Shown here: piece after piece, positions 3,107 to 49,258 of the stretch | Layout: each line of letters starts with the position of its first letter | Numbering within the stretch: the first letter of the stretch is position 1 | Source of the DNA: a virus | Taxonomy: Duplodnaviria > Caudoviricetes | Reading direction: 5' to 3' (one strand) | DNA: 61,489 nucleotides | IMG/VR virus record: IMGVR_UViG_3300042567_000475 | Span: 1-61,489 of that record | Program-made: the position numbers and the translations under genes | Notes under the pieces: generated by a model | Told to the model about the DNA's origin: nothing | Database searches by the model: none | The model's input: the letters and a program-made list of their open reading frames with translations, nothing else

Positions 3107-3253
3107 TTATGAAGCGTTTCTCAGTCCGTTCTTTATAAAATAAGATAGCTCGTTGCAATCATCACACGGATCAATTGAATGTTCACATGCCCAAACTATT
3201 TCTTTAGATATTCTTTCTCTCCAGTAGATTTCTGGATCTCCGTCTTTTCTCAT
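3107..3253 (-). CDS. 48-aa Cys-containing protein (not in ORF track)
   Basis: MRKDGDPEIYWRERISKEIVWACEHSIDPCDDC...; shares E.YWR..I.KE with 1110-1403. Confidence 0.55.
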   Translation of the reverse strand: MRKDGDPEIYWRERISKEIVWACEHSIDPCDDCNELSYFIKNGLRNAS

Positions 3254-3311
3254 AACTACCCCTGAAAAATGATCTCACATAAACATGTGGCAGTTATATT
3301 ATACCTCTTAG

Positions 3312-20108: not shown

Positions 20109-20400
20109 AGTAATTCTTTAGCTCCCTCATAAAAATTTTCATTTTTGATTGGTGTACCAAGCAGTTGTCACAGATGCCTGAATCATTGTAAATGCTTAGG
20201 AGGGTATTACACCCTCCTCCACACTTCTTTTCTTTTCCCTTGCGATTTTTTCTTTTTTGAAGATGATATCTTTCTAGGATCTTTTCCTTGCTTGCTTCCT
20301 GCCTGCATTCAGAGTTGCAATAAATTTGTTTTGTTGTGTTTGGCGAGAACTGTTTATCGCACCACTTGCAGTAAAGCATTTTAGAAGAGTCCTTTCTCAT
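20089..20400 (-). CDS. Zinc-finger protein
   Basis: CKWC...YCNSEC...C...C...CDNC. Confidence 0.75.
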   Translation of the reverse strand: MRKDSSKMLYCKWCDKQFSPNTTKQIYCNSECRQEASKEKILERYHLQKRKNRKGKEKKCGGGCNTLLSIYNDSGICDNCLVHQSKMKIFMRELKNYFDYEQN

Positions 20401-21241
20401 CCTTTCGACGCGCTATCTTGATATCTCCGACAGGTGCATCCTTACACGCCTGCTGTATGGGACAGTTTTGACATATTTTTATGTCATTGCTTCTAAAGGG
20501 AACCTCTGGAAGCTTTCTGTCTTTCCATGCAGCATGAACATCTCTCATCCAATCAAACAGATAATCAACAAAATCTACATGATTTTGAGTAATGTTCACT
20601 GGTACTGCTAGTAGTTCATGAGTATTTTTATTCTCATATAATATTATACCGTTTTTCTTCTTATAGATTTTCATATAAATTAGAAGCTGCACGATATGAT
20701 ATGTACTAGCCTTCTTAGATCTCTTATGCCTATCAAAAGAATCATGGTTGGTTGTCTTAATTTCCACCACATACTCTGTATTATTCCAATTGATAAAACT
20801 ATCTGTGTAACCAAAGATAGGTGGGTCCTCATTAATTGTCTTTCTTTCGTTATCAATTAAGATACCAGAATCTTCTAATGCTTTTTGAATACGAGCGTGC
20901 CTATCTGAACCACTATCCATGTTAGTGATAACCTTGCCACTCTTGTACTCATAAAATTCTGCACCATCAAATGCTAGATACCAATACCTTGGGCATACGC
21001 CATGATTCCACACCAATGTTGATGGAGCGAAAGTTTTCTTCTGCATGTGCTTTGGAACATTGTCTTTACGATAGCCTTCTTCTATGGCCTCAACAAGTCC
21101 AGAAAGGGGGCCAGAGTCCTGGAACTCTGACTCGTCTTGCATCTCTGTTTGCCACGCAGTTTCTAACTCTTCAAACTTTTCCACATCCTTTAGCACACTC
21201 TTGCTCTTTTTTAGAATCTTACTTACAATTGTTTTAGCCAT
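20381..21241 (-). CDS. Cas4-like PD-(D/E)XK exonuclease
   Basis: PS...CPR...H...GYTD...EIKT...QL.IY...CQNCP....C. Confidence 0.85.
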   Translation of the reverse strand: MAKTIVSKILKKSKSVLKDVEKFEELETAWQTEMQDESEFQDSGPLSGLVEAIEEGYRKDNVPKHMQKKTFAPSTLVWNHGVCPRYWYLAFDGAEFYEYKSGKVITNMDSGSDRHARIQKALEDSGILIDNERKTINEDPPIFGYTDSFINWNNTEYVVEIKTTNHDSFDRHKRSKKASTYHIVQLLIYMKIYKKKNGIILYENKNTHELLAVPVNITQNHVDFVDYLFDWMRDVHAAWKDRKLPEVPFRSNDIKICQNCPIQQACKDAPVGDIKIARRKDEKGLF

Positions 21242-21843: not shown

Positions 21844-22052
21844 TAGTAACCCCTGTCTCTTTTTATGTTGACGGTAGAGACAGTATCACAGTCTTTACAC
21901 TTCCATGTAATATCAAGAACGGCTGGGTAGAATCTTGCTGTTGATATTTTTTGCTGACAACTTTGACAAGAAAATTCTCCATGCATCACTTCATACTTAG
22001 AGTAGCTTGACAAGTTCTTCTGCTTTCTCTGGGTTCTCCCTAAGCCACTCAA
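21843..22052 (-). CDS. Zinc-ribbon protein (start uncertain)
   Basis: CQSC...WKCKDC. Confidence 0.65.
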   Translation of the reverse strand: MSGLGRTQRKQKNLSSYSKYEVMHGEFSCQSCQQKISTARFYPAVLDITWKCKDCDTVSTVNIKRDRGY

Positions 22053-23004
22053 TCACCTTTGCACGCCCCTGGAACCTCTCTCCAAGGACGGTATACCATG
22101 CTCCACCCTTTTCAACCTTACCAAGTTGCTCTGCAACGTCTAGGACTTCTGCAATATTGTCCACGCCAATATTATCGCCGTCAAAGTAGAAATCATACTG
22201 ACCGCTGATAAAAGCGGGTCCAGTCTTATTGAAGTCCACATTCCATGTAACACTTCTTCCAATTTTCTTTTCAATTAATTTATCTCCTGTTGCTATCTTG
22301 TCTTTGATTGCTTGGTTTTCTGATTCACTAGACCAAAGTTTTACAATGGTGCTAGAGAAAAACTTAACAGCGTGACCACCAGTTGGAGCGTGGCTGACAT
22401 ACATAGCCCCAATTTGATTTCTTTGTTGAGATATAAGAATCAAAAGGGTTTGCTTTGTCTGGTTGTTTGCATAGTTAAGCATCTTCACGGCATTAGTCAT
22501 GTCTCGTGCTTCTGCACCAATTTGCTTTGTGTTCTCAAGTTGCTTTAGTTCTGAGCTATCCTTTTCAAAGTAGATTGCTGGAAGAAGGGCAGAGATAGAA
22601 TCTACAACAATTATGTCTGCTCCTGCTGACATAAGCTGTGTAGCAACATCTACCATATCATTGACAGTTCTGGCCTGAGAGTAGATTAATTTCTCTGGAT
22701 CTGCCCCCAGCTTCTTTGCCCAGTCTGGATCAAACGATTGTTCTGCATCTATCCAAGCACAGATCTTTCCTTCTTTCTGAGCCTCACCAATCATCTGTAA
22801 ACAAAAGGATGATTTTCCTGCTGACTTGTTTCCCCAGATAAGTATTTGACGACCATATGCAAGACCACCTTTTAGTGCATTGTTTAGTCCAATGCTTGGA
22901 GTCTTTTGCTTATGTACTTCAATTCCTGATGCTGATGTAATTTTCTTTCTAAGCTTTGGATCTAACTGAGAAAGAACTGATTCCATATTAATAGTATCTG
23001 ACAT
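21997..23004 (-). CDS. recA: RecA/UvsX-like recombinase
   Basis: GNKSAGKS, WIDAE, VVDSISAL, IGAEAR, GGHAVKF, KGGAWY, FQG. Confidence 0.95.
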   Translation of the reverse strand: MSDTINMESVLSQLDPKLRKKITSASGIEVHKQKTPSIGLNNALKGGLAYGRQILIWGNKSAGKSSFCLQMIGEAQKEGKICAWIDAEQSFDPDWAKKLGADPEKLIYSQARTVNDMVDVATQLMSAGADIIVVDSISALLPAIYFEKDSSELKQLENTKQIGAEARDMTNAVKMLNYANNQTKQTLLILISQQRNQIGAMYVSHAPTGGHAVKFFSSTIVKLWSSESENQAIKDKIATGDKLIEKKIGRSVTWNVDFNKTGPAFISGQYDFYFDGDNIGVDNIAEVLDVAEQLGKVEKGGAWYTVLGERFQGRAKVIEWLRENPEKAEELVKLL

Positions 23005-23330
23005 TATGCCAGTACCCCATGCATTCTTTCTCTTTCTGTATTATATTTTACTTTTTCAACTAAAGACTCTTCGATGGATTTGTTAGTATAACCATCACGA
23101 ACAAGTCCAGCCCATAAATCTAGGGTACGAATTATAATGTCTGACAACTCTTTGACTACACTATCGCCACCCTCCTCTTTACGCATTGCTTCTAAGACCT
23201 CTGTGGCCTCTGAATGAATCATTGCAATCTGCTTCATATAAAAGATCAGACCGTTATTTGCTTCCCAGAAGCCTTTGTCAATAGCATTGCTATGAATCTC
23301 AAATGCTAACTCATCTATACCGTATGTCAT
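23004..23330 (-). CDS. MazG-like NTP pyrophosphohydrolase
   Basis: KGFW...HSEATEVLEA.RK...ELSDIIIR.LD...K..YN..R. Confidence 0.85.
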   Translation of the reverse strand: MTYGIDELAFEIHSNAIDKGFWEANNGLIFYMKQIAMIHSEATEVLEAMRKEEGGDSVVKELSDIIIRTLDLWAGLVRDGYTNKSIEESLVEKVKYNTERERMHGVLA

Positions 23331-26300
23331 TTACTTATCTCCTTTACTGTTATCGTTCCATCTTTAAGTTCGTTCATTAAAAGCTTTTGAATACTTCCTG
23401 GTTCGCATTTCATGTAGGCTTCAGCAAACATAGTCGGAAAGACAACGACAGGAATTAGATTACGATCATAATCTGCAAGAACCATATGAGCCATTCTCTT
23501 TCCTGCTTTTGTTACTCTAGGGTTAAAAGATAGCACAAAATACTCATTTTGTCCATATGGCAAGGTCTTGTAGTTTAAGAACTTTGTCAATGGTGACTTT
23601 ACTTTATCAGCATCTTCTACCTGTAAAAAATCTGCTATTCGATTACTTGCTGAAAGAATTATGTATGTCTTTCCTACTTCTATTTTGCTATCTTCTTCAT
23701 CAAAGATTCCTACCATACCCGTCTTGTCCATAAACTCTACACGACACCACCCCTTGCCACGCTTTATCTTTTTAGCCATTCCCATAACAATATGACTCTT
23801 GGACTCATCATAGTCTTCAGTGTTGTCAATATATGCATAGTAATGGGAGGGAATGTTCATAGAGAACTCTGGAAGGTTTAAGTATTCGTAGAGGTTATCC
23901 CTAACAGTATCCTCATTTCGTGGATGATCTGGAAAGGTTAGTGCTCCAATTGCATCCAAAGCTTCTATTGCCCTTGAGTTTATTCCGCTACCCTTTTTAA
24001 AAGCAATATCTCTTACTTCTTGGTAGGAGTTAAATGGCCTATTAGCCATAATCTTTGAAGCAACTCCATCAGATATCCACTTGATTGCTGACAAACCAAA
24101 CCTAATACCTTTGCCTTCTATCTTAAAGTCTATATCAGATTCATTAATGTGAGGAAGCTTTAAGCTAATATTCATACGCTTTGCCTCAATAAGATACTCT
24201 GTTCTAGCATCCTTATCCTTCTCATTCTTAAGAATTGCAAACATAAACTCTGTAGGATAATAAAACTTTAGCCACGCTGTCCAATAGGAAAGCATTGAAT
24301 AGGCTACGGCGTGAGACTTGTTAAAAGAATATCCTGCGTGAGCCTCAAAGTCATGCCATAGATTTTGTGCTTGGAATGGACTTATATATGCTGATGCATT
24401 AGAGACAAACTTATCTTTAAACTGATCAAACTCTGTTGCATCCTTTTTCTTTCCAATAATCTTTCGAACCTTGTCTGCTTCTACCATTGTCATTCCACCA
24501 AGAGTTGTGCAAGCCTGCATGACCTGCTCCTGATAAAGAACGCAGCCATATGTATCTTTAAGGTGTTGATTCATTAGTGGATGAATATATTCTATGGTAT
24601 TCTTTCCATGCTTGCGAGCCATATACTCTTTACCAATGGTATTCATTGCACCTGGCCTAACCAGTGCGTTTGATGCTACTAACTCCTCAAATGTTCTGAC
24701 ACCCATCTTAACAATAAGATTTGTATATGGCGTTGCCTCACATTGAAAGACTCCCTTTGTGTGACCATCTGAAAGCATTTGATAAACATGCTTATCCTTC
24801 ATGTCAAGTTCTTTTAGATTTATATCTAATCCATAACGAGACTTGATACTGTTTAGCGTATCATTGATTACTGTTAGTGTCTTTAGACCAAGTGCATCAA
24901 TTTTAATTAGACCGATATCGGCTGCCTCTTCCATGTCAATTCCAACAACAGGGATGCGCTCCTTAGTGGAAGGGCTTATTCTAGTTTCAAGTGGAGCGTA
25001 ATTAAAAATTGGTTCCTTGGCTGTAACGATTCCAGCAGCATGAATGCCTGTTCCACGAATTCGACCTCTTAGTTGTTCGCCATACTTTTCAACCTCTGGG
25101 TACTTATCACGGAACCACTTAGTTGATGATGATCGACAGTAGTCTTCCCATGTATCAACAAGCTTAAGTACTTTATTAACATCTGGAAGAGGAACGTTAA
25201 GGATACGAGAAACGTCACGAACTACACCCTTGTCCTTAAACTGCAAGAATGTTGCAATAGATGCGACATGCTTATATTCCTTCTCAAGGTACTCTTTTAC
25301 CTCGTCACGCCGTGAATCCTGAATGTCTGTGTCAATATCTGGAAAGTCATTTCTATCTGGGTTAATGAATCGGAAGAACAGTAGGCCGTGTTCAATTGGA
25401 TCAACCTCTGTAATTTCAAGAGCATAGCAGACAAGAGATCCTGCTGCAGAACCACGACCTGGACCAATGAGAATACCCTGACTCTTTGCCCACGCAATCA
25501 TATTGTGAACCACAAGGAAGTATGGAGCAAAGTCTTTATCTTGAATAACTTCTAACTCTTCTTTGATACGATCAAGGTATTCTTCTTTTTTGTCTAAGCC
25601 TCTAAGCTTTAGACCAGCCATTACTAGGCTACGCAATTCTTTTTGAGGATGATCTACCTTTATTGGTAGAAGGTTTAGGTTGCTTTTAATTTCATATTCT
25701 TCTACCTTGTCTGCAATCTCAAGGGTATTGGTATAGATACTTTCATCTGTGACACCCTCTGCATCCATAGCACTCTTCATTTCATCATAAGAAAGAAGGT
25801 GGATATCAAATGATCTAAAGCTCATCATTCTATCTGCACCATATAGATAGTCAAGTCTTTCCATCATGTCTTTGTATGATGTTGACTTCTCATATGAAAC
25901 GTCTTTTTGAAGCTTTGCATGTGTATTAAGAGCCAGCATCATCTCTTGCACTACCTTCTGATCTGGTGTGCAATGATGACAGTCTGGAGTAGTTATGCAC
26001 TTTGCTCCTGCTTCTTGAGCAAGATTATAAAGCTCCATATTCATGCCAGCAACATTGTGTGGCATAAGTTCTACATAAAAATCATCTTCAAATCTATCTT
26101 TAAACCATTTAATGTGTTGCTTTGCTACTGCATACTCGTCTAACTCAATAGCTTTATTGATGAGACCAGACATGCAGGCAGTGGATACTATAAGACCTTC
26201 GCCATACTTATCAAGAACTTCAAAGTCTATGCGTGGTTTCCTATAGAATCCCTCTGTCCAGCCTATCTCGTTCAGCTTGTTCAAGTTCTGTAAACCAATT

Positions 26301-26599
26301 TGATTCTTGGCAAGGATTACAATATGATTATAGATAAGGTCAAGGGGGTTTTCCCTTTCATTCTTATCTCGTTTATCAAATCTATCAGCGGTAATATAAC
26401 CTTCGATACCAAGGATTGGCTTTATACCCTGCTCTTTTGCAGCACGATACATAGGTCTGTGACCAGACAGCACCCCATGGTCTGTAATTGCAATGGCAGG
26501 CATCTCTAGAGTTTTTGCACGAAATGCATACTCCTCTGGAGTTGATACACCATCCATTAGACTAAAATGGGAATGAACATGAAGCGGAACGTAATTCAA
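23327..26599 (-). CDS. dnaE: DNA polymerase III alpha subunit
   Basis: PHP LHVHS.FS..DG, AITDHG; GRGSAAGSL, PDIDTD, HAAG, KID.LGL, GVFQ, YSFNKSHA; TTG at 26599 follows the SSB stop; no intein. Confidence 0.96.
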   Translation of the reverse strand: MNYVPLHVHSHFSLMDGVSTPEEYAFRAKTLEMPAIAITDHGVLSGHRPMYRAAKEQGIKPILGIEGYITADRFDKRDKNERENPLDLIYNHIVILAKNQIGLQNLNKLNEIGWTEGFYRKPRIDFEVLDKYGEGLIVSTACMSGLINKAIELDEYAVAKQHIKWFKDRFEDDFYVELMPHNVAGMNMELYNLAQEAGAKCITTPDCHHCTPDQKVVQEMMLALNTHAKLQKDVSYEKSTSYKDMMERLDYLYGADRMMSFRSFDIHLLSYDEMKSAMDAEGVTDESIYTNTLEIADKVEEYEIKSNLNLLPIKVDHPQKELRSLVMAGLKLRGLDKKEEYLDRIKEELEVIQDKDFAPYFLVVHNMIAWAKSQGILIGPGRGSAAGSLVCYALEITEVDPIEHGLLFFRFINPDRNDFPDIDTDIQDSRRDEVKEYLEKEYKHVASIATFLQFKDKGVVRDVSRILNVPLPDVNKVLKLVDTWEDYCRSSSTKWFRDKYPEVEKYGEQLRGRIRGTGIHAAGIVTAKEPIFNYAPLETRISPSTKERIPVVGIDMEEAADIGLIKIDALGLKTLTVINDTLNSIKSRYGLDINLKELDMKDKHVYQMLSDGHTKGVFQCEATPYTNLIVKMGVRTFEELVASNALVRPGAMNTIGKEYMARKHGKNTIEYIHPLMNQHLKDTYGCVLYQEQVMQACTTLGGMTMVEADKVRKIIGKKKDATEFDQFKDKFVSNASAYISPFQAQNLWHDFEAHAGYSFNKSHAVAYSMLSYWTAWLKFYYPTEFMFAILKNEKDKDARTEYLIEAKRMNISLKLPHINESDIDFKIEGKGIRFGLSAIKWISDGVASKIMANRPFNSYQEVRDIAFKKGSGINSRAIEALDAIGALTFPDHPRNEDTVRDNLYEYLNLPEFSMNIPSHYYAYIDNTEDYDESKSHIVMGMAKKIKRGKGWCRVEFMDKTGMVGIFDEEDSKIEVGKTYIILSASNRIADFLQVEDADKVKSPLTKFLNYKTLPYGQNEYFVLSFNPRVTKAGKRMAHMVLADYDRNLIPVVVFPTMFAEAYMKCEPGSIQKLLMNELKDGTITVKEISK

Positions 26600-26603
26600 G
26601 TTA

Positions 26604-27257
26604 TTACCAATCCACACTAGTAGATGTAGTGGGATCGTCAAAACCTAAATAAAATGACTCTTGATCGGCGTAAGGAACCTTTCTAATCGCAGATTCCAAT
26701 GGTAGTACTTCGTGGCCCGACCAGTCAAACTCTTCCGTATCTGTTGCTCCTGGAATAAGAATATAGTTTGTCTCTGTTCCTTTTCCATTTCTTTTTAGCT
26801 TCCATACCATATTCGTAATGCCTTCTGATTCCATAGCATATTCACGAACAGTACTAAATGTTGCAGACTTTGCAACACCCATGCTCCATACGGCTACATA
26901 TGGATCTTCCATTCCGTCATCAACTAAAACATTGATGTAGAATCTTAGACGACCAGCCCAGCCAGCCTTGGGGTCTTTACGGTGCATCTCTTCTGCCCAG
27001 TCACGACCTTCTGAATCCATAGTATCTAGAGCCTTACGGCGATAGTCCTTTGGATTTGTGTGCTCTTTGACTACAATGGCTAGGCCATTCTTTTCGTTGT
27101 AGTGCTTAGAGTCTTCATCAAGTTCATTAACAAACCTGATCTTTACGCTCTGACCATCTTCTAGCTTTAGCCAGCGTACTCGTGGTCCTGATGCTGAATT
27201 TCCACGAGGCTTGTCTAGTGCCTCATTAATGTCTTTGAGACCTTTAATTATACTCAC
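26604..27257 (-). CDS. Phage-type (gp32-like) ssDNA-binding protein
   Basis: WLKL.DGQSVKIRF...R.GKGTETNY; acidic tail ending DW; between primase and DnaE. Confidence 0.65.
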   Translation of the reverse strand: MSIIKGLKDINEALDKPRGNSASGPRVRWLKLEDGQSVKIRFVNELDEDSKHYNEKNGLAIVVKEHTNPKDYRRKALDTMDSEGRDWAEEMHRKDPKAGWAGRLRFYINVLVDDGMEDPYVAVWSMGVAKSATFSTVREYAMESEGITNMVWKLKRNGKGTETNYILIPGATDTEEFDWSGHEVLPLESAIRKVPYADQESFYLGFDDPTTSTSVDW

Positions 27258-38323: not shown

Positions 38324-38904
38324 TAAACTTCCTCAAGACTAACAGATATATCCCACATGTCATAATTTGTTCCGCCACGTTTAATTACGTCATGGTCAAA
38401 TGAGGAAAAGAATACCTGTAAAACTTGATTATATTCTGCTAAATGACCATAGGTATTTTCAGTAAACTCATTGTATTTATCATATGCAAGAAGAATATAA
38501 AACGATCCTGTATGATTTTCATACCAATTTACAATGTCTACGCCTCCAGCTCCTAAGTCTGCTGTGAAATCTTCTACATTGTTGGTCAATACGCCAAGAT
38601 CAGAAAATGTTGCAGATGCGGAAAATGCACGGGAAGGCAAAAGATTCCATGAAAAAGAAAGTCTCTGTTTATCTGCTATGTGATAAGATCTCATAGTTCC
38701 ATTAATCATTCTTTTTTTGTTCTCTATTCTTTCACAAGATATAGAAATCTCTGATCTATTGTGGTCAGAAAGAATTATAAAGTCTTCAAATTCTGTGCCA
38801 ACTGGAACAAACTTTCCATTGCTTTTTTCATATGCATCAGCCCAGACAATTGCTTGGGGTCTTGAATAAGCAGATCTTCCAGCCATATATAAACTATTAG
38901 CCAC
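38323..38904 (-). CDS. Distal tail protein-like
   Basis: Directly after TMP; RMINGTMR...SW...ISVSLEEV. Confidence 0.65.
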   Translation of the reverse strand: MANSLYMAGRSAYSRPQAIVWADAYEKSNGKFVPVGTEFEDFIILSDHNRSEISISCERIENKKRMINGTMRSYHIADKQRLSFSWNLLPSRAFSASATFSDLGVLTNNVEDFTADLGAGGVDIVNWYENHTGSFYILLAYDKYNEFTENTYGHLAEYNQVLQVFFSSFDHDVIKRGGTNYDMWDISVSLEEV

Positions 38905-41900
38905 GGATGTTATTACTCCTTATACCTTTATTTTCAGTCATTTTAATCTTTTGCATCACGGCGTTTGCTACATCATTTGCATCCATGTCGGAGCCATTTA
39001 ACGTTACGTTTACATTATAATTATACATTGATCCAGACTTTTCTGTTTTATTAGAAGAATTGAAAGAGTTAGTTTTCATAGTTGGGAAGACTTGACCATT
39101 TAGTAATTCTAGTAAAGGTCCATATTGTTCTGCAACTCTTTTTCTTACAACAAATTCCCCTGGGGTGAGCAGAGCTGGAACCTTGTCTGTCATTCCTCTT
39201 CCAGGAACGATAGATCCATATGCATATTTTTTAGCTGATCCTCCATACATCATTCCTGGAGCACGTTCTGTAGATCCTTTGTAATTTACCATTCCACCTA
39301 TAGCATAATTAGAAATAAAACCACCAAAAGCTCTGTTTGCTGCTCTTGCTTTTGCTGCATTTGCTGCTGCTCTTACTGCTGCTGCTGCATCTGCTGCCCT
39401 ATCTGCTGCTGATGGTCCTGCTACTCTTTTTGCCGCTGCTTCCGCTGCTGCTCTTGCCCTGTCTGCTGCTGCCGCTGCTGCTGCTTTTGCTCTTTGTGCT
39501 TCTGCTTCATTTGCTTTTGCTTGCGCTGCTGCTCTCGCTTTTGCTGCATTTGCTGCTGCTTCCGCTGCTGCTCTTGCTGCTGCTGCATCTCTTACTGCTG
39601 CTGCTGCATCTGCTGCCCTATCTGCTGCTGATGGTCCTGCTACTCTTTTTGCCGCTGCTTCCGCTGCTGCTCTTGCTGCTGCTGCCAATCTTGCTGCATC
39701 TGCCAATCTTTGTGATTGATCTGCTGTTGGTGTTGGTGCTGATGGTGCTGATGGTGTTAATGTTTTTACTGGTGGTATATTAACAGAATTCGATCCCCCT
39801 CCACCGCTACCGCCGAGGTACCCGCCACCAGTGGTTAGGGCTGGACCAGCTGGATTTAAAAGCATCCCGCTTTGACCAATAGGGTAAGGGTCGGGTGCTG
39901 GCTCTGCTGGTGTTGCTTCTGTCTCCCCAGCATTATCTCCTGGAATAGTTTTGTTTAAACGATCTTGATCCTTTTGGAGATCTTTTAATTTAACTCTAAG
40001 ATTTTCTAGCGCCTCTGCAGCGTTATTATATTTTGTTGCAAGCCTATCGGCTTCATTATTTATTTGTATTTGCAAGTCATATATTTTATTTTCAGCAGGT
40101 AGTATTTTAGTACTTTGAATTATATAAATCTCATCTTGAATTACTCTTTGTCTCATCTGAAGATCTTCAATATCTTTATTAATCTTTTTCTTTTGCTTTT
40201 CTATTTCAAGAATTTTATTTTGAATGTTTTGAGTTGCTTTTTCTTTTTGAGACTCAAGAGCAGATCTTGCCTCTTCTCTACTTTGTCTGGCAAGTTCTTG
40301 TGACATTCCCAAAGCACCTTGGGCTGCAGCAGCAACGTCACCACGGGAAAGTGCTTGAGCAACATCAAGTTGCCCCTGCTTAAGTTTTGCAATATTTTCT
40401 TCTCTGTTATATATTTCATCAAGAGCTTCAATTTGAGCATCATATGCTTCAGAAGTTTTATCAGATAGTTCTTGAAGCTTTTCTATTTGATCGTCAAGGG
40501 GTTCAAGTTCTCTTTGCTTAAGTTCAATGTTTCTACCAATTATATCAACTTCTTGTTGTTTTCCTCTAACAATCTTTTCTTGCCCGTCAATAATTTTTTG
40601 CTGAGCTTCAACCAGATCTTCAAGAGGTTTAACTATCTCAATCTCTTCAATCTGACGTTGAACATCTTTTATTTCCATAAGGTTGTCGCGTTTTTCTTGT
40701 TCAAGTCTGCCTGGATCTCTAGCATATTCTGCTGCTTTTAATTTATTATAAGCATCTGTAAGGAGTTCTACCTTTCCAGTAGCATCCCCTGCTTTTAATC
40801 CCGCTGCTGCCAGTGCAGCAGCTAACTCTGGAGTTTTTCCTTCATTAATAAAACCTAGTTCTGCAACTAATAATGATGTTTGAGTTTTCATGTCAGTAAT
40901 AGACCCTGAAATTTTTTGAGCTTGATTGATTATAGGAGCATCTCTTTCTGCTGCTTCTCTCGCTTCTTTAAAAGCTTGTAATTTTTGATTAATCTCCCTT
41001 TTTTCTTCTTTACTTGTTCCTTTATCTTTTAGTTTTCTTCTTAGCTGTTGAGCATAAAGAAGATCTTCATCAGAAATGAGTTCTCTAATAGCATTTATGT
41101 CATCTTCATATAGACCCTTGTCTGCTAATTTTTTATTGTATTGTGAAGAAAGAGCAGTTTTTTTAGACTCTTGAACCAATGCTTGTGGAGTTAATGCAGC
41201 CATTGCTGCGGCGTCTGAAATCTTTGTTTTTTGGTAATCAGCATATGCTGCCTTGACTTTTTCAAGTCCACCCTTGATAAGTTTTAGTCCTGCTGCACCT
41301 TGAGACCTTAAATATTCTAAAAATTCAGGTGCAAATGGGCCAGCTATAAAGTTTTTAAATCCTTTTTCATTTTGAAGATTTGATATACCTTTAAAGGTTT
41401 CCCCTGATAATTTTGCTTGTTCTTTAAGTTGTTGGGCTATTGACTTTTCTCCACCGCCACTACTACCTGAGCTAGATCCAGAGCCAGGAATTGGTGCAAC
41501 AGTTGCCTCTACTAATGCTTTTTCTGTACCTATTTGACTTTGCAAAGATGCAATTCTTTTCAAAATTATTTGTCTTGATTCTGCATCTGTCGCAGTTTTT
41601 AGTGCTGCCATTGCACTGTTTAATTGCATAACAAGTGATAAATTTTTAACTTCATATCCCATTCTTATTTCAATCATTTGTTCTTGAACAACTGGATCTA
41701 ATTTATCAAAGTTTTTAAATTGTTCTCTTAGTCCAGCTATCGCATTTGCTGCTGCTTCTTGTGGAGTTCCTCCTGCTATATTTTTTCCACTATAAGCAAC
41801 AGCAATATCTATCATTGCTTTTTTTCTAATTTCTGAATTACCACTTTCTAAGTCTTTCATGGCTTTGTTAAGTTTTATAACATTTTTTGATACTTGCTCT

Positions 41901-44900
41901 GGAGTAAGTGGTTTTCCTTCTGCGTCAAGGGTTAGAAATTCCATTGCTGCAGTCATATTAATATTTGGATTAAGATTTTCAATAATTTTCCATTGATCTT
42001 TTAATGTTTTTGCAGCAGCACCAAATTTTAATAAATCTGCTGGGTCTGTTGTGTCAATTTTCAAACCCTTTATCATTTCATCTGGCAAAGACATAATATC
42101 TTCCTGCGCTATGGTTAACTTTGTAATTGATGAAATCATTTCTGCTGGAGTATTTTCTCCTTCAGTTTGAATTACATATCTAATTACTTTTTCAACTACC
42201 CCACCTTCTGCTGCTCTAGCAAAAGCTTTGTTGATTTTTTCTGATCCATCTACTTCTCTAACTGCTTTTCCATAGGCATCACTTTTTTGAATTGCGACTG
42301 CCTGCTCTACTCCAACTGATCCTGAAAGAGATTGAAGTCCGAATGCAATGTCTGTTCGTCTTCTTTCTTGTTCTTCAGGAGAAATAATATTTCTTCCTGT
42401 ATCTCCAGTCTGTATTCCAGCAGACTTAAGCGTTTCTATACCAGTTTTTAGAAGATTTTCTGGTAAGGATGCAATATAATTTTCAATTAAAGCTGTATTT
42501 CCTCCAGCTGCTTCAAATTCCTTACCTATTGTAACAACATCACTTGACTGTCCCTTTGTAATTCCTGGAATATTTTGTGCAAACGTAATAAATTGTGCAG
42601 TAGCAATACTTGCTCCATCTCGCAATGCCTTAAGTGCATCAACGTTGTACATAATTTCTTGACCAAATTGAGCAGCTTGTTCAGCAGTCATGTCTCCAGC
42701 AAGTACGGATGCTTTAATTGCCTCATTTAGTCCCTCAAGATCGACCTCTCTTGCAAGATCTTGTGCTTCTTTTGATTCTTCAACTAAGGAGGTTTGTTGT
42801 GTAGAATCAAGTTCACCAAAAGATTTATCAAATTGTACATCTGCTTGTTGCTTAACAAATTCTTTTTGATAAGCTGATTGTGAGGGCGTTATTACATCTA
42901 CCATCCCCAATGCCGCCCCCACTAGGTTTCCACTAAGTAGGCTTAATGCAGGCCTCAAATAATCTTTTGATTCGCTAAAGCCAAGGGAAGATGTTCCAAT
43001 GTTTGTTGAATTAGTAATTGCACCTACCTGATCTTCTGTATAGCCTGCTGCAACCATTTGTTGATCCAGAGCTTGTCTTGCGGCACCTTGTTCAGCAGCA
43101 TTGCTAACAGATTTTTTAATAACATTTGTGTATTGTTCTTGAGCCGTTCTTGCTTCTGTTATTGCAGTATGATATTCGTTCCAACCAATTGTTCCTTCTG
43201 CGTATTGCTGTTCGGCAACTCCAATTACATTTCCATAATCTTGAATTATTTGTGTGGCTGCCCCTATAGCTCTACCAGCGGTTTCATTTGAAAGGCTTGC
43301 TTCCCCACTTGATACTGCAAGTTTTGCAAGAGAACCATCGGCATCAACTGCCGCTTTACGCATATCAGCAATTTCTTTTATAGCAGAAGTTCCAGTTTTT
43401 TGTCCTGATATAGATGAAACAGCTTGATTTGAAAGAACAGAGTCTCCAAGTTTTAATCCTACTGCTTTAGCAAAAGTAGTTGCTGCTTTCTGATCCATCA
43501 TTCCAGATGCTATTGCTGTCTTTAAATAATCTGATAGTTTTTGGAATCTTTCAGCAGATGTTGAATTTTGAAGATCTTCAATAAACTTTTGTCCAGCACC
43601 AGATTCAAATACCCCAGAGAATTCATTTGCGATTGTTGCTTCTTCTTCTGAAGAAATTCCCATTACTGCTTTTTGTCTGGCTTGTGCAGGAGTTTCTGTT
43701 CCTAGTACTTGTGCCATTGTATTTAATGCATTTGCAGTAGCACCAATATTTGCTCCAAACTCCGCTGCTTTAGTGGCAGCATCATCTACACTCTTTCTCC
43801 AAATATATAATCCAGCACCTACTGCTGCTAAAGCTGCTGCTACTGCTGCTGCTGGAAGTGCAATTGCAGCAAGTGGTGCTAGCATTGGTCCAAGCATTGG
43901 TAGCATACTGCCCATGCTAAGAGCCATTCCTCCAGCATTCATGGCTGCCCCTAGTCCTGCATTTGATTCACCAACAGAGCCTGCACCCATCATTAAGGCT
44001 CCACCAGCCATTCCTATGCCCATGGAAGCTCCCATGCCCTTCATTCCACCCATAGATTGAAGACCTCTACCAATGGCTGAGTTTGCTTTATTTTCTTTTC
44101 CAAATCCAAGTGTTCTTGAAGAAAATCCTCTTTGTCTTGTAGTTGTTGTTCTTCTAATTGCTATGGCACGACCAATTTCTCTTCCAATTGTTTTATCATC
44201 CATAGCATTTCTACCCAATACTGCGTCTGACTGATATTCATATATTGGGGAACCTTTTTGTGCAAGAGCCTTTGCCTTTTCTGGATCTTTAATTGGCTTT
44301 CCATCTGCACCAAATCCAATGATATCTCCACCTTCTGCATATCCCATTAAAGTTCCATTATTAACAGAGCGTAGTAAATCTAAATTCTTTTTTGTAGCAT
44401 CTTTATTGATAACAAATTCACCTGGAGTAAGTACTGCTGGTACTGTGTCTTTATTCCCTACCCCTGGAACTATGTTTCTAGATGTTTTTGTTGAATCAAA
44501 TATTTCTCCACCAATATTTCTCATCTGAGGAAGAATGCCACCCATGTTAAGTTTTGATACAACATTTGGATAAGATACTTCTCTTCCTCTTCCCCAGTTA
44601 ACAAAGGCAGCCATATTTTCAGATTCATCATAAAGTCGATCTAAGTCGGGCTTTGCTTTATCGCGGGAAACTTCTCCTCTAACAATTGCCATTCTTATTT
44701 TTTTAATTTCTTCTTTTGCCTTGTCGTATCTTGCTTGAGCTTCTTCTCTTTCTACAATTCTAGTTTTTGGCCTTCCCGTTAGTCTTGCACCTAAAAGGGC
44801 AACCTCTTTTTCGTCAAGGATTTCATTACTTGCTGCTGGATTATTTATTCTTTGTTCATCTCTGGGAACAATTCTTCCGCTTACATCAAAGTATTTTTCT

Positions 44901-47900
44901 CCCTTCTTTATAGAAGTTTTATAAATTGTAGGAATATTTGATTCTTGTAAATCATCAATAATCTTTTGATGACCAGCAATAAATTCTTGATCTCTTTTAA
45001 TTCTTTCTTCAAGTTTTTTCTTGTTGGCTTTCCAAATAACACCACCAGATGCTTGAATTTCTTCTGGAGTTAGTCTTAAACCTAATGCCCCATTTTCTTG
45101 ATTAAATGGAGACCATGTTTTCAAAGGGTGTGGACCATCTGGCCCCAAAGATCTTAACCAATCTATATCTCTTTTCATTCCTTGACTTCTTTGAGCAATT
45201 TGGAATTTTGAGTTATTCATTTTGTCAAATAATCTAGAGCTTTCTATAAATCTTCCAACACCCTTACCTGTTGACCAGCTAGAGACTTCCTTTAAAGTTC
45301 CTCCGCTTATTGGGTCAACAGATCCTCTTGTTATGTCTATCTTTTTTCTAGATGTAGACAATCCTCTTTTTATGTTTGCTGGGATGTTTTGCAACATGTC
45401 ATCTCTATTTGATTGACTAATAGATGTTGTCATTCTTGAGAACCATTCAACAATGTTTGCTGGGATGCGGCCTCTTGCACCTCTTGCTGCATTTGCTGCT
45501 GCAGCAATTCCTCCTCCTCCTAGCATTGAAATCATTCCACCCATATTAAGTTGGGACGATTCTGACATAACGTATCTTCCTGATGATTTTCCAGTGCTCT
45601 TTAATCTTGATGTTCCTTGCATTCTTAAAGAGTCGTATAGTTTTTCAGGAAGATTTCTTTTTAAAATATCTGTAAAGATATTATCAAATTCTCCTGGTTT
45701 AAGAGGTGTTTCGCCTATACTTCCAAATATATTTCGTGCATCATTGTATGATCTTTCTATTGCTGGAATAGATATTGTGTCTGGTATACCTAGTCTTCTT
45801 GCAGCTTCCAGCTGCAAAGAAAATGGATGAGCAGGAGTGTTTGCAAGATCGTTATAGATATCTTCTCCAGTTATCTTTCCAAAAGAAGGTCCACCTTTAA
45901 GACCTTGATTAACTCTTGGTGATTGCCAAATCATTAACCCTGGATGATAAGTTCTTTCATCATCAATTTTAATTCCCTTGGCAACGTGACCTCTTTGCAA
46001 AAATTCTGCAGACAACATGCTTTCGTCCAAAACATCTCTTCCAAGGCTAGAGCTTGAACCCATTATTCTTTTTCTATCATTTTTTTGCAATCCCCCTCCC
46101 GTACCCGTCAACCAACCTGGAAGCAAGCCCCGTGAACTTCCCGACAATCTTTGAAAGTTTTTCATTAACATTCCTATATTGGCATACTGTACTCCAGGAA
46201 TCATTCCACCCTTGTTTGCATGAGTGGCTTGACCAGATCCTCTTAGACCTGCATAATCAAGAACTCCTTCAGGTCTTCCTAGATTTCCAGCTTCTCTTCC
46301 TGCAAGGTTTCCAATATTTATCTGTCTACCATCCATGTCAACATAAAGATCTTTTTTATTTTTTCCTGATGAATATTGAATTCCTCTAGCATCTAGGGTT
46401 TGTTTTATTAGTGGCAAAGATGCATTTGCATTTACAGCATCTCCTTGAAGCACATCCCTTATAAAATCATTTCTTCTTGTTTTGGGAAATCCAGCAGAGT
46501 CTAAATATTTTCTTACAGCATTACGAGAGGCTTTTTCAAATCTTCCGTTAGTAATACCTGTCATTGGAAGTTTTAAGATTTCTTCTTTATAAATTCTGTC
46601 AAAAACATTTCTATCTAATTTTGCACCCAAATAACTGTCTAGCTGTTTTGCCAATGGGGAATAAACATCTGGTGTATTCAATTCTTTAAGAAGATTATCT
46701 CTTGTTAAATCCCCTCTCATCATAGCTAGGTTTGAGTCTTGAGACATTCTAAAAGTTAGGTTTCCACGAGTTTTTAATCCAAGCTGTTCTGGACTAAACC
46801 CAAGTCTTTCAACAGCAAATCTTAAAGTGTCTACCCTTACATTTTGTCCTTTTTGATATTTTCCAGTTAAAGTATTGTATAGGTCTTGTGAGCTTCTTGA
46901 GGATGCTGCGTTTGATGCTTGAGTTTTTCTAGTCCCCCCTCTACCGCCCATTGCAATTGGAATAGTTGCTGCCTCTTGTCTTTGAGTCTGTACTCTTGCC
47001 ATAACTCTTTGCATTGCAGCGGTCATACCTGCCCCACCACCAGTATTCAACATAGAGACTGGCTTTCCACTATTAATGGCATGAAGCAAAGAGAAGTTTT
47101 CCTGTGTGGCCTTTTTGTTTACTACAAACTCTCCAGGTGTTAGAACTGCTGGGACGGTATCTCTATTTCCAACCCCTGGAATAGTGCCTCCACTGTTTCT
47201 TGCAACTATTGGAAGAGGTCTGCCTGCAAGATTTGACGATCCTCCTCTAGCCCTAGTCATTGCTGCGCCAGGAATTGCAAATGCTCCTCCTGCGACTGAA
47301 GCTTTTGAGGCGTCCATCATTCTTGCAGCAAGAATTTGATAAGAAGCTGCTAATTCATCAACTGCTGTACTTGCTACTCCAGCAGCTAAAGGCTGGTCTC
47401 TTAATGCCATATTTACAAACTCAGTGGATTGTCCCAATTGCATTGCAGCGTTTGCTGCGTCCATTTCTGCAAGACTCATGTATTTTAATGTTTGACTTAC
47501 TGCCTGAATTGAACCAGATATTCCACCTTTTGTAAATCCCTTAAAGGCTACTCCAATAACATTTCCAAATTTAATAAGAGTTCCTGTTAGGTTCATTAAC
47601 AAACCTAAAAACATAGTTCCTGCTGGGATTAAAATACCAGTAATTACTGTTCCAAATCCAATAAACTTTTTAGCAAAGTCTGGTAAAGAATTAAATTTTT
47701 CTACTAGGCTTCCTAGAAATTCAAGAACAGGAATAGCTAGTTGAGTAAACATTTCTCCAATTGGAGCTATGGCAAGCTTTAGTCTTTCCATTGCTGCGAC
47801 AAATTTTGTTGCAGAAGAATCTTCAATAGCACCAAGTTCTTTTGTAGCAGAAGCAGCAAGTTGTGCTGCTGACAATGCAGCAGTATCCATAACTCGTGAA

Positions 47901-49258
47901 GCTTGAGATCCATCCTTAATAATATTATTAAACAAAGCTCCAAGTCTTGCATACTGGTATTTTCCAAATACCTTTTCAAGTGCTTGTTGTTTTCCAAATT
48001 CATCTAGAGTAGCTAATGCTCTAGCAAAACCTTGAACAGTTCCCATAAGATCTCCGCGATTTGCGTCAACAATTGCATTGATATTTATACCAAGTTCGCC
48101 TAGCTTTTCTACTGCTCTGTTTGTTGGGTTAATCAAAGAGGCAAGACCAGATTTTAATGCGTTTGCTCCTTGAGCAGCAGAAACACCGCCTTCCTGCATA
48201 GCAGCAAGCATTGCAGCCATGTCTTCTACAGATCCACCAAGACCTTTAATAACTGGAGCAACTCTTGGAATAGCCTGTGCAAGATCTTGCAGGGTAACAA
48301 CTGTTTGGTTTTCTACCATGTTCAAAAAGTTAATTGTTTTTGTTAAATCTTTACTCTGTAGACCAAAGGCTGTTTGCAAAGCTATTGTTGTTTCAAGTGC
48401 TTCACTTTGTTCCATTTGACCAAGTGTTGCAAGTCTAGTTGCTTCTCTGGTTGCATCAATAAGATCTGCGCCCTGGGAACCAGCAGCGGCAGCTTGAGCA
48501 GCCAGACCAATAGTATCTTTTACTGCAATTCCATACTTTGTATATTCTTTTGCCAATTCCTTAACAGCTTCAAGGTTTGCTTCCATCTCTTCTGGTGGTG
48601 TAAAAGCATCTCCATAAACTTTTCTAAAGTTAATTGTTTCTTTTTCAATTTCTCTAAATACTTTTCCAGATGTGGCTGCAAAAATTGTAAGTGGTACTGT
48701 AAAGCCAACCATAAGCTGACGACCAGCCCACTGAGTATTCTTACCAAAATTAATCATTGATGTCGTTGATTGGGTAAGCATTGCTCTATGAATTGCTAAT
48801 TTTTGTGCTGAAACTGCTGCTTGAGAATTAAAGGCTTGAAGAGGTCTAATTGCAAGTGACTCTCTAAATCCATTTGCTGCTGAACCAGTGGCTATAAATT
48901 GAGTTTCTAATGCTGATGCACGGGCATTTGCCAATGATAGGACTGCTGCTGCTTCATTGCTACCCTTTTTAAATCTTGCGTTAAAGAATTGACCTATTGT
49001 TCCTTGTCCCTTTTGAAGAGTCTTGTCTAGTCTAGAGGCAGCGGTTTGCATCCTTACTGTTTCTGCACTAAATAATCCTCCAGCATTAACCATCTCAGAA
49101 AGCTCTGATGCAAGATTTTTTGCTGCGCTAGCTTGAACTCTATTGTTAGTATTTAAAGCTGACTGAAATGAGTTTATCTGAGCCTGAAGCTGCCTAAGAC
49201 TTTGAGCAGCGTCACTAGTATTGATGTTGACATCAATATTAACTCTAGTATTTGCCAC
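38897..49258 (-). CDS. Tape measure protein, 3453 aa, with internal enzyme-like cassette
   Basis: Follows tail chaperones; N-terminal TP901-type core, TM segments, coiled coils; three PGEFV modules. Confidence 0.93.
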   Translation of the reverse strand: MANTRVNIDVNINTSDAAQSLRQLQAQINSFQSALNTNNRVQASAAKNLASELSEMVNAGGLFSAETVRMQTAASRLDKTLQKGQGTIGQFFNARFKKGSNEAAAVLSLANARASALETQFIATGSAANGFRESLAIRPLQAFNSQAAVSAQKLAIHRAMLTQSTTSMINFGKNTQWAGRQLMVGFTVPLTIFAATSGKVFREIEKETINFRKVYGDAFTPPEEMEANLEAVKELAKEYTKYGIAVKDTIGLAAQAAAAGSQGADLIDATREATRLATLGQMEQSEALETTIALQTAFGLQSKDLTKTINFLNMVENQTVVTLQDLAQAIPRVAPVIKGLGGSVEDMAAMLAAMQEGGVSAAQGANALKSGLASLINPTNRAVEKLGELGININAIVDANRGDLMGTVQGFARALATLDEFGKQQALEKVFGKYQYARLGALFNNIIKDGSQASRVMDTAALSAAQLAASATKELGAIEDSSATKFVAAMERLKLAIAPIGEMFTQLAIPVLEFLGSLVEKFNSLPDFAKKFIGFGTVITGILIPAGTMFLGLLMNLTGTLIKFGNVIGVAFKGFTKGGISGSIQAVSQTLKYMSLAEMDAANAAMQLGQSTEFVNMALRDQPLAAGVASTAVDELAASYQILAARMMDASKASVAGGAFAIPGAAMTRARGGSSNLAGRPLPIVARNSGGTIPGVGNRDTVPAVLTPGEFVVNKKATQENFSLLHAINSGKPVSMLNTGGGAGMTAAMQRVMARVQTQRQEAATIPIAMGGRGGTRKTQASNAASSRSSQDLYNTLTGKYQKGQNVRVDTLRFAVERLGFSPEQLGLKTRGNLTFRMSQDSNLAMMRGDLTRDNLLKELNTPDVYSPLAKQLDSYLGAKLDRNVFDRIYKEEILKLPMTGITNGRFEKASRNAVRKYLDSAGFPKTRRNDFIRDVLQGDAVNANASLPLIKQTLDARGIQYSSGKNKKDLYVDMDGRQINIGNLAGREAGNLGRPEGVLDYAGLRGSGQATHANKGGMIPGVQYANIGMLMKNFQRLSGSSRGLLPGWLTGTGGGLQKNDRKRIMGSSSSLGRDVLDESMLSAEFLQRGHVAKGIKIDDERTYHPGLMIWQSPRVNQGLKGGPSFGKITGEDIYNDLANTPAHPFSLQLEAARRLGIPDTISIPAIERSYNDARNIFGSIGETPLKPGEFDNIFTDILKRNLPEKLYDSLRMQGTSRLKSTGKSSGRYVMSESSQLNMGGMISMLGGGGIAAAANAARGARGRIPANIVEWFSRMTTSISQSNRDDMLQNIPANIKRGLSTSRKKIDITRGSVDPISGGTLKEVSSWSTGKGVGRFIESSRLFDKMNNSKFQIAQRSQGMKRDIDWLRSLGPDGPHPLKTWSPFNQENGALGLRLTPEEIQASGGVIWKANKKKLEERIKRDQEFIAGHQKIIDDLQESNIPTIYKTSIKKGEKYFDVSGRIVPRDEQRINNPAASNEILDEKEVALLGARLTGRPKTRIVEREEAQARYDKAKEEIKKIRMAIVRGEVSRDKAKPDLDRLYDESENMAAFVNWGRGREVSYPNVVSKLNMGGILPQMRNIGGEIFDSTKTSRNIVPGVGNKDTVPAVLTPGEFVINKDATKKNLDLLRSVNNGTLMGYAEGGDIIGFGADGKPIKDPEKAKALAQKGSPIYEYQSDAVLGRNAMDDKTIGREIGRAIAIRRTTTTRQRGFSSRTLGFGKENKANSAIGRGLQSMGGMKGMGASMGIGMAGGALMMGAGSVGESNAGLGAAMNAGGMALSMGSMLPMLGPMLAPLAAIALPAAAVAAALAAVGAGLYIWRKSVDDAATKAAEFGANIGATANALNTMAQVLGTETPAQARQKAVMGISSEEEATIANEFSGVFESGAGQKFIEDLQNSTSAERFQKLSDYLKTAIASGMMDQKAATTFAKAVGLKLGDSVLSNQAVSSISGQKTGTSAIKEIADMRKAAVDADGSLAKLAVSSGEASLSNETAGRAIGAATQIIQDYGNVIGVAEQQYAEGTIGWNEYHTAITEARTAQEQYTNVIKKSVSNAAEQGAARQALDQQMVAAGYTEDQVGAITNSTNIGTSSLGFSESKDYLRPALSLLSGNLVGAALGMVDVITPSQSAYQKEFVKQQADVQFDKSFGELDSTQQTSLVEESKEAQDLAREVDLEGLNEAIKASVLAGDMTAEQAAQFGQEIMYNVDALKALRDGASIATAQFITFAQNIPGITKGQSSDVVTIGKEFEAAGGNTALIENYIASLPENLLKTGIETLKSAGIQTGDTGRNIISPEEQERRRTDIAFGLQSLSGSVGVEQAVAIQKSDAYGKAVREVDGSEKINKAFARAAEGGVVEKVIRYVIQTEGENTPAEMISSITKLTIAQEDIMSLPDEMIKGLKIDTTDPADLLKFGAAAKTLKDQWKIIENLNPNINMTAAMEFLTLDAEGKPLTPEQVSKNVIKLNKAMKDLESGNSEIRKKAMIDIAVAYSGKNIAGGTPQEAAANAIAGLREQFKNFDKLDPVVQEQMIEIRMGYEVKNLSLVMQLNSAMAALKTATDAESRQIILKRIASLQSQIGTEKALVEATVAPIPGSGSSSGSSGGGEKSIAQQLKEQAKLSGETFKGISNLQNEKGFKNFIAGPFAPEFLEYLRSQGAAGLKLIKGGLEKVKAAYADYQKTKISDAAAMAALTPQALVQESKKTALSSQYNKKLADKGLYEDDINAIRELISDEDLLYAQQLRRKLKDKGTSKEEKREINQKLQAFKEAREAAERDAPIINQAQKISGSITDMKTQTSLLVAELGFINEGKTPELAAALAAAGLKAGDATGKVELLTDAYNKLKAAEYARDPGRLEQEKRDNLMEIKDVQRQIEEIEIVKPLEDLVEAQQKIIDGQEKIVRGKQQEVDIIGRNIELKQRELEPLDDQIEKLQELSDKTSEAYDAQIEALDEIYNREENIAKLKQGQLDVAQALSRGDVAAAAQGALGMSQELARQSREEARSALESQKEKATQNIQNKILEIEKQKKKINKDIEDLQMRQRVIQDEIYIIQSTKILPAENKIYDLQIQINNEADRLATKYNNAAEALENLRVKLKDLQKDQDRLNKTIPGDNAGETEATPAEPAPDPYPIGQSGMLLNPAGPALTTGGGYLGGSGGGGSNSVNIPPVKTLTPSAPSAPTPTADQSQRLADAARLAAAARAAAEAAAKRVAGPSAADRAADAAAAVRDAAAARAAAEAAANAAKARAAAQAKANEAEAQRAKAAAAAAADRARAAAEAAAKRVAGPSAADRAADAAAAVRAAANAAKARAANRAFGGFISNYAIGGMVNYKGSTERAPGMMYGGSAKKYAYGSIVPGRGMTDKVPALLTPGEFVVRKRVAEQYGPLLELLNGQVFPTMKTNSFNSSNKTEKSGSMYNYNVNVTLNGSDMDANDVANAVMQKIKMTENKGIRSNNIRG
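39371..39676. repeat. Two identical 87-bp direct repeats (39371-39457, 39590-39676) in an Ala-rich GCT/GCA tract
   Basis: Both encode ARAAAEAAAKRVAGPSAADRAADAAAAVR. Confidence 0.9.

Follow-up and report, generated by a model that had tools for sequence, protein, structure and literature searches.

Why does a single tape measure protein (TMP) of 3453 amino acids (aa) carry one short double-glycine motif again and again, and is the protein cut there? The question arises from a 61,489-base record of an uncultured virus in IMG/VR, with an estimated completeness of 52%, the whole of which is referred to below as the window. A first-pass annotation of this DNA had proposed that the motifs are cut sites that release each domain of the TMP and that a recurrent PGEFV module beside them may be the recognition or processing unit. 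We find that the motifs are real and conserved junction elements of what its sequence indicates is a polyprotein-like TMP. Maturation cleavage at some of the junctions, most likely at the C-terminal cluster beside the third module, is suggested by analogy with other tail proteins; we regard it as quite possible and put it forward tentatively. All coordinates are those of the window.

38897..49258, minus strand: TMP gene, 3453 aa plus stop, identified from the list of open reading frames (ORFs), the translation, and matches to PF10145, TIGR01760, and PHROG.

All twelve strings picked out in the first-pass annotation were found in the translated TMP where it had placed them: RNSGG (aa 687-691, window 47186-47200), LNTGG (aa 737-741), ANKGG (aa 1014-1018), YANIG (aa 1024-1028), LNMGG twice (aa 1237-1241 and aa 1570-1574), RNIGG (aa 1580-1584), YAEGG (aa 1640-1644), AFGG (aa 3310-3313), YAIGG (aa 3318-3322), MYGG (aa 3337-3340), and YAYGS (aa 3345-3349). 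They are copies of one conserved junction element that occurs in three settings: alone, in tandem with a spacing of 9 residues, and at the edges of the module.

46175..46219, minus strand: stand-alone junction motif ANKGGMIPGVQYANIG, aa 1014-1028, where the matches of seven homologues end.
45536..45550, minus strand: LNMGG as a stand-alone junction motif, aa 1237-1241, with a Gly/Ala-rich stretch after it.
44507..44551, minus strand: LNMGG (aa 1570-1574) and RNIGG (aa 1580-1584), a pair of junction motifs, with seven endpoints of high-scoring segment pairs (HSPs) at aa 1571-1582.
39212..39331, minus strand: C-terminal motif cluster AFGG, YAIGG, MYGG, and YAYGS, aa 3310-3349.
47036..47200, minus strand: module 1 with both edges, RNSGG, a VPAVLTPGEFV core at aa 702, and LNTGG (profile E value 4.1e-29).
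44327..44476, minus strand: module 2, a VPAVLTPGEFV core at aa 1606 with downstream edge YAEGG at aa 1640-1644 (profile E value 7.8e-29).
39083..39226, minus strand: module 3, aa 3345-3392, with a YAYGS edge and a VPALLTPGEFV core (profile E value 7.6e-27).

PGEFV cores begin at three positions, aa 702, 1606, and 3360. A word-index search gave 74 other giant TMPs of 1993-4984 aa, and 199 unique module copies from 75 TMPs were stacked on the core. The stack reads (M/Y/F)-(A/N)-x-G-G-x-V-P-G-x-G-N-T-D-T-V-P-A-M-L-T-P-G-E-F-V-x-N-K and continues with a helix-like L-L-x-A-I-N-x-G and a second (Y/F)-x-x-G-G. Relative to the core, the edge motifs lie at fixed offsets, from -15 to -11 and from +34 to +38, so that a module of ~55 aa is bounded on both edges by the junction element. 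Since the stacked copies carry the motif at both ends, RNSGG, LNTGG, YAEGG, and YAYGS are best described as module edges. In 220 giant TMPs the general form of the motif is (K/R)-(F/Y/L)-(A/N)-x-G-G-x-(V/I)-P-G, longer than the N-x-G-G first described, and the consensus over 79 unique stand-alone copies is (R/A/K)-N-K-G-G-M-I-P-G-V-Q. The motifs had also been said to come in close pairs, and they do: the TMP has pairs at aa 1571/1581 and 3310/3319, and the spacing of consecutive motifs in the 220 giant TMPs peaks at 9 aa (159 pairs at distance 9; 324 at 8-12).

Could such strings arise by chance in a glycine-rich, low-complexity protein? The composition of the TMP (9.2% Gly, 13.8% Ala) lends this some plausibility, and GG alone is modestly enriched (42 observed against 29 expected, a count reached in 13 of 2000 protein shuffles). 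The motif behaves otherwise. N.GG occurs eight times in the TMP against an expectation of 1.53 +/- 1.22, and [NA].GG.[ILVMFY] 11 times against 1.29; none of 2000 shuffles reached either count. Within aa 660-1700, with that region's own composition, N.GG occurs six times against 0.73 expected, again with 0 of 2000 shuffles as high. In an alignment of 13 TMPs, residues N688, G690/691, N738, G740/741, N1015, K1016, and G1017 are invariant or nearly so, G1240 is invariant, G1241 is nearly so, and the cargo between these positions varies. Together with the fixed offsets in the 199 module copies, these results effectively refute chance, which we consider extremely improbable.

The positions of the motifs were then set against the borders of sequence blocks exchanged among relatives. 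The TMP was compared by BLASTP with its 14 closest relatives, and HSPs of at least 200 aa with endpoints inside aa 700-1660 were retained. The claim that the motifs lie at cassette borders was borne out: 22 of 28 HSP endpoints lay no more than 12 aa from a motif, against an expectation of 4.3, although a binomial figure for these endpoints overstates their independence because the relatives are kin to each other. Relatives P0004 and P0006 share aa 1-1025/1104 and aa 1238-1582 with the TMP at 70-86% identity and have unrelated sequence between. P0007 and P0008 change sequence at aa 741, the N-terminal match of seven further relatives stops at aa 1021-1037, and the matches of four homologues begin at aa 1238-1249, by the LNMGG motif. 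The region of the C-terminal cluster is 53-93% identical among close relatives. These block-wise mosaic breakpoints define three cassettes.

46220..47035, minus strand: cargo cassette 1, aa 742-1013, with breakpoints at aa 741 and aa 1021-1037 and a helical domain at ~aa 787-994.
45551..46174, minus strand: cargo cassette 2, aa 1029-1236, replaced in P0004 and P0006, which keep cassettes 1 and 3.
44552..45535, minus strand: cargo cassette 3, aa 1242-1569, within a block (aa 1238-1582) that is 81-85% identical in P0004 and P0006.

The first-pass annotation had suggested a test for motif enrichment at domain borders in homologues, and the density of the motif was compared between zones of the giant TMPs. 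Across 71 of the 75 (four with fewer than two cores were left out), it was 3.35 per 1000 aa in the cargo zone and 3.02 at the C-terminal end; the coiled coil had 0.58 and the N-terminal part 0.98.

Exchange of this kind raises the possibility that the motifs are merely the conserved ends of mobile cassettes, that is, linkers at which TMP recombination is viable, with no role in processing or docking. The blocks exchanged between relatives (cassette 2 in P0004/P0006, the switch at aa 741 in P0007/P0008) and the clustering of breakpoints at motifs are what such a reading predicts. It accounts poorly for motif residues that are conserved in TMPs without common cargo, out to lambda, JBD30, and T5, a residue-level conservation that points to selection on the peptide. 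At the DNA level, moreover, the three module copies of the gene are 61-70% identical over 117 nt and a five-residue motif spans 15 nt, which would make both poor substrates for homologous recombination. We therefore regard passive cassette ends as improbable.

The resulting layout is polyprotein-like: a TP901 core, module 1, three exchangeable cargo cassettes, and module 2, followed by a hydrophobic stretch, a long coiled coil, the motif cluster, module 3, and an inferred C-terminal plug helix. The parts not yet listed are the following.

47636..48664, minus strand: TP901-type TMP core, aa 199-541 (TIGR01760, E value 1.9e-33, with PF10145 inside).
43784..44056, minus strand: Gly/Met/Ala-rich hydrophobic stretch, ~aa 1735-1825, directly after module 2, read from the translation.
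38900..39082, minus strand: C-terminal tail, aa 3393-3453, in which AlphaFold2 (AF2) predicted a terminal helix at ~aa 3427-3447 with a predicted local distance difference test (pLDDT) score of up to 81.

A second hydrophobic stretch can be read from the translation at ~aa 540-600. Immediately upstream of the C-terminal motif cluster lies an Ala-rich repeat region (window 39338-39742, aa ~3173-3307), which holds two copies of a ~147-nt unit (39338-39484 and 39557-39703; 82% identity, 219 nt apart) along with numerous sub-repeats of 9-18 nt.

Structure prediction gave the junctions little fixed shape. An AF2 model of aa 640-1260 (13 sequences) had a mean pLDDT of 51.7, and only cargo 1 was confident (~aa 787-994, 66-90); module 1, LNTGG, ANKGG, and LNMGG scored below 50 and cassette 2 scored 33-54. 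A model of the last 164 aa (36 sequences) had a mean pLDDT of 56.6, with the motif cluster mostly below 50. Motifs lay in such low-scoring segments, flanking or separating parts that were modelled better. The junctions are predicted to be flexible. The terminal helix (residues 138-158 of the 164-aa model) has no Pfam TMP_C match; by its position it would correspond to the C-terminal plug helix of the T5 and lambda TMPs. Module 3 was modelled at low confidence as two short strands in a hairpin plus a helix. This is too small for a peptidase, so the proposal that the module is itself the processing unit is unlikely to hold; the module may be a recognition or docking element.

The nature of the cargo was approached through the same models and through relatives. 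No lytic domain was recognised in the TMP cargo by Pfam and structure searches, a PDB sequence search with aa 660-1700 gave no matches at E values up to 10, and NCBIfam on the cassette region and the C-terminal end gave nothing relevant. Foldseek against the PDB with the 621-aa model, most of it of low confidence, gave no matches at E values up to 0.001, and an ESM Atlas search with cargo 1 gave no usable match. Cargo 1 is left without an assigned fold because its best VIA-align Z score, 5.6, is below the tool's meaningful level. A scan of viral contigs with module 1 plus cargo 1 returned 12 loci, all of them module-only matches, and the three shorter proteins that matched the cargo were every one a fragment on a short contig. 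Among relatives, an ADP-ribosyltransferase exoenzyme domain (PF03496) is carried as cargo, flanked by modules or motifs, by P0031 (aa 798-953) and by P0039 (aa 657-806), where it sits between RYARGG (aa 647) and KYALGG (aa 825). Other giant-TMP relatives carry LysM (PF01476) or EF-hand matches (P0091).

Are the junctions cut? The premise that many TMPs are proteolytically matured is too strong as worded. The closest parallel is T5 pb2, whose cut is placed by Linares et al. (PMC10038345) after R1127, between a hydrophobic stretch and a small C-terminal fragment that is expelled first; the assignment is based on intact masses of 121,683 and 9,702 Da (PMC11937500). The translated T5 residues after R1127 are A-E-G-G-M-M-Y-P-G-V, close to N-K-G-G-M-I-P-G-V of the TMP, so that junction motif ANKGGMIPGVQYANIG resembles AEGGMMYPGVSY of T5. 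The motif regular expression has one match in the 1219 residues of T5 pb2, at A1128, the residue after the reported cut, and a hidden Markov model (HMM) of the 79 stand-alone motifs matches T5 only at 1125-1134 (E value 0.003-0.012). R1127, A1128, and G1131 are invariant in six Demerecviridae TMP C-terminal ends, down to 34% identity, giving T5-like phages an invariant R-A-x-G/S-G junction. The T5 cut, near the C-terminal end, separates a hydrophobic stretch from a small enzymatic or plug fragment (pb2C, 92 residues) that leaves separately; the stretch at aa ~1735-1825 of the TMP is similar in kind to the membrane-inserting stretches beside the T5 and lambda cut regions. T5 pb2 differs in having a single site, no VPAxLTPGEFV module, and no multi-cassette region, and its overall sequence similarity to the TMP is negligible.

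A further conserved element was seen in the same Demerecviridae C-terminal ends: G-E-x-G-x-E-(V/L)-(V/I)-T-P, 14 residues downstream of R-A-x-G/S-G, is fully or almost fully conserved. Its T5 copy overlaps what PMC10038345 describes as a metallopeptidase motif.

Lambda gpH shows a similar arrangement, with FATGG at 733, GEFV at 754, and YATGG at 778. The module profile matches gpH aa 750-776 (E value 4e-4 in a single-sequence search), a weak copy. The gpH cut has been placed at ~aa 690-730, in a glycine-rich stretch just upstream of the module, and PMC12617516 gives its catalyst as unknown; in agreement, we calculated that a cut at 716-730 gives products of 78-79 kDa and 13-14 kDa. Lambda and the TMP thus share, in the same order, a hydrophobic and glycine-rich stretch, an FATGG-type motif, a module (divergent in lambda), a YATGG-type motif, and a C-terminal helix (predicted in the TMP), which in lambda binds the hub. 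gpH differs in having one module and no cargo, in a cut that has not been mapped to a residue, and in belonging to TMP family PF06791/PF09718.

The tail-tip protein Tal of TP901-1 offers a third comparison. It is processed at a glycine-rich motif with N-S-G-G before its catalytic domain, and G-to-R changes block processing (PMC11409707). There, too, the motif lies at a domain junction, and processing removes the catalytic domain. Tal is, however, not a TMP and has a longer glycine run, no V/I-P-G tail, and no module; the TMP motifs have two glycines followed by hydrophobic residues and Pro, unlike the G-G-G-N-S-G-G-G run before a lytic domain that defines a Tal-type site.

Taken together, the proposal that the motifs are cut sites stands in one part: they are conserved, apparently functional junctions at the borders of exchangeable domains, and cleavage itself is argued by analogy with T5, lambda, and Tal. 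In the reading that we tentatively favour, cleavage of the TMP would take place at the junctions while the tail is being assembled or afterwards, in the manner reported for T5 pb2 and lambda gpH. It would free a C-terminal plug from the rod, and perhaps some of the cargo domains as well, allowing their separate exit at infection. If T5 is a guide, the cut would fall just before (A/N)-x-G-G, after a basic or aromatic residue, and not after GG. The cutting activity would most likely come from the host or be triggered by assembly. Release of every cassette seems to us unlikely.

Two candidate mechanisms were discarded. Asn cyclisation was ruled out because most copies have A instead of N (1975 A-class against 814 N-class unique contexts). 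The prohead protease was rejected as the cutter by inference, since the lambda cut happens in tails before head joining.

Several observations weigh against cleavage at these motifs. The T5 site is disputed: older MALDI (matrix-assisted laser desorption/ionization) work placed it at V1148 +/- 1, 20 residues downstream, and R1127 is a tryptic site as well, according to Ayala et al. (PMC11937520). Both disputed positions are at the motif or within 21 residues past its start. The reported T5 cut precedes the A of A-x-G-G and does not follow GG. The top T5 score of an ungapped position-specific scoring matrix, at 1129/1128, was not significant, being equalled or exceeded in 44 of 300 shuffles. In lambda gpH, the HMM of stand-alone motifs matches best at 105-113, on GGMIPMFRG (E value 0.001), a copy that must be uncut because gpH and gpH* have a common N-terminus, and a cut at YATGG 778 would split the ~14-kDa fragment, for which no such split is reported; the motif alone is thus insufficient for cleavage. 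A Pfam scan of 24 neighbouring ORFs, many without a family, found the prohead S78 protease as the sole peptidase in a record that is ~52% complete, and Pfam at E values up to 1 found no peptidase domain inside the TMP. The same neighbouring ORFs were considered for a dedicated peptidase of a GG-directed system (double-glycine leader/C39 or JAB-type isopeptidase), again yielding only S78. Lambda gpK, for its part, carries JAB and NlpC/P60 domains. Finally, the low pLDDT at the junctions may reflect shallow alignments, or a fold adopted only in the assembled tail, instead of flexibility. As a separate observation on lambda, the strong G-G-M-I-P copy at 105-113 stands at the start of a hydrophobic segment in the N-terminal part, a long way from where gpH is known to be processed.

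The tandem spacing of 9 residues and the recurrence of modules, up to 11 per protein in TMPs of up to 7,872 aa, also fit a structural repeat at least as well as a cleavage signal. In the main rival reading, junction elements and modules alike would have a structural task and stay uncut, as short strand-turn repeats that keep three (or six) TMP chains in register to either side of globular inserts, or as hooks that dock to the tube, the distal tail protein, or the hub. The TMP would then stay one polypeptide, unless a single cut that has nothing to do with the motif is made near the C-terminus. The conserved span of ~10 residues is longer than a usual protease site, and the uncut gpH copy at 105-113 fits as well. 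In T5, moreover, the 42-43 residues just before the cut dock between hub subunits after opening (PMC10038345). Phage JBD30 offers a further comparison. Its TMP has a weak copy of the module, matching the profile at 1019-1070 (E value 8e-8), flanked by FASGG (aa 1020) and HATGG (aa 1082), and its authors predict a two-helix plus hairpin 'hook' at residues 1022-1066 that anchors the TMP in the baseplate (PMC11445458). The hook region lies within the module-profile match and is read by those authors as an anchor and not as a processing signal, although they also speculate, from a peptide-cutter tool prediction, about a cut at R1066 (PMC11445458). An uncut structural role sits less well with the AF2 monomer, which gives neither module nor motifs a confident fold, and it leaves unexplained the motif at the reported T5 cut and the invariant R-A junction of T5-like phages. 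We consider it possible, though somewhat doubtful. A structural role and cleavage can coexist.

A more far-reaching version of the cleavage reading was also weighed. In it, (K/R)-(F/Y)-(A/N)-x-G-G-x-(V/I)-P would be a general TMP maturation signal, and giant TMPs would be true polyproteins cut at every junction after assembly, with separate cargo fired into the host ahead of the DNA and the module docking the cutter. A fully cut giant TMP would be the phage-tail counterpart of autoprocessing multi-effector toxins. Rhs and CdiA polymorphic toxins have demarcation motifs. MARTX-type toxins are described (PMC3153235) as a carrier with an exchangeable effector array released at short conserved junctions. 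In the TMP, by contrast, Pfam at E values up to 1 found no cysteine protease or other peptidase domain, and the carrier is a virion tail component. We think that this general scheme is rather unlikely.

The module is widespread, mostly in giant TMPs. With a profile built from 21 copies of it, 27,207 cluster representatives were matched at E values up to 0.001; the number fell to 7,955 at a limit of 1e-10 and to 1,368 at 1e-30. PF10145 was present in 10 of 12 module-bearing proteins scanned. Gordonia, Nodularia, Ralstonia, and Synechococcus phages are among those whose TMPs also carry the module, and in the TMP of Gordonia phage Yeezy an SLT lysozyme-like domain is followed directly by YAQGG and a module. 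Scans of the TMP, lambda, and T5 proteins found no Pfam model for the module; Pfam coverage elsewhere comprises PF09718 at aa 627-701 of the lambda protein and PF24165 at the last 36 residues of the T5 protein. Among the top profile matches, proteins P0079-P0102 (7,794-7,872 aa) have 9-11 modules, often ~1000-1250 aa apart. Were these proteins helical throughout, the tails would have to exceed 1 micrometre, or else such TMPs are not simple rulers.

By its family matches the 3453-aa product is identified as a TP901-type tail TMP. PF10145 matches aa 235-432 (E value 6.7e-29, 101.6 bits against a cut-off of 33.2) and TIGR01760 matches aa 199-541 with 115.9 bits (cut-off 28.8); 11 of the 12 PHROG families matched are annotated as tape measure protein. 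The gene occupies an ordinary siphophage structural block. On the minus strand it is preceded by genes for a portal, the S78-type prohead protease, a capsid protein, an adaptor, an Ig-domain protein that is likely the major tail protein, and two small ORFs that, from their position, may be tail chaperones; next come an ORF of 193 aa and a minor tail protein of 1431 aa. No close relative was found in the GenBank phage collection, the single match being 72 nt to TMP genes of Streptomyces phages. This core stretch (window 48688-48759, aa ~167-191) is 87-95% identical at the DNA level to 57 Streptomyces phage records, an unusually high conservation for a record of ~38% GC compared with actinophages, and the remainder of the 10.4-kb gene has no match. 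Elsewhere the record encodes an IMP dehydrogenase/GMP reductase-family protein (15437-16456), a PD-(D/E)XK nuclease (20381-21241), a RecA-like protein (21997-23004), and a family-B-like DNA polymerase (23327-26641).

No paper was found that names the motif or the module as a TMP processing signal, which is a weak sign of novelty given that literature coverage was partial and not motif-searchable; the terms cleav-, glycine, proteoly-, and processing are absent from a dissection of the TP901-1 TMP (PMC5099701). One short consensus, present at the reported T5 site, beside the region where lambda gpH is cut, and at all cassette borders of a giant TMP, makes a hypothesis that can be tested by mutation, and it addresses how TMPs are cut and by what, the points at issue in lambda (PMC12617516) and T5 (PMC11937520). 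The module is very common yet lacks a Pfam model. If the junctions are uncut, the motif would still be a useful domain-boundary marker for annotating or engineering TMPs. If they are cut, giant TMPs would deliver a number of independent proteins, predicted ADP-ribosyltransferases among them, and this would change the view of tail length, ejection, and early host takeover in long-tailed phages.

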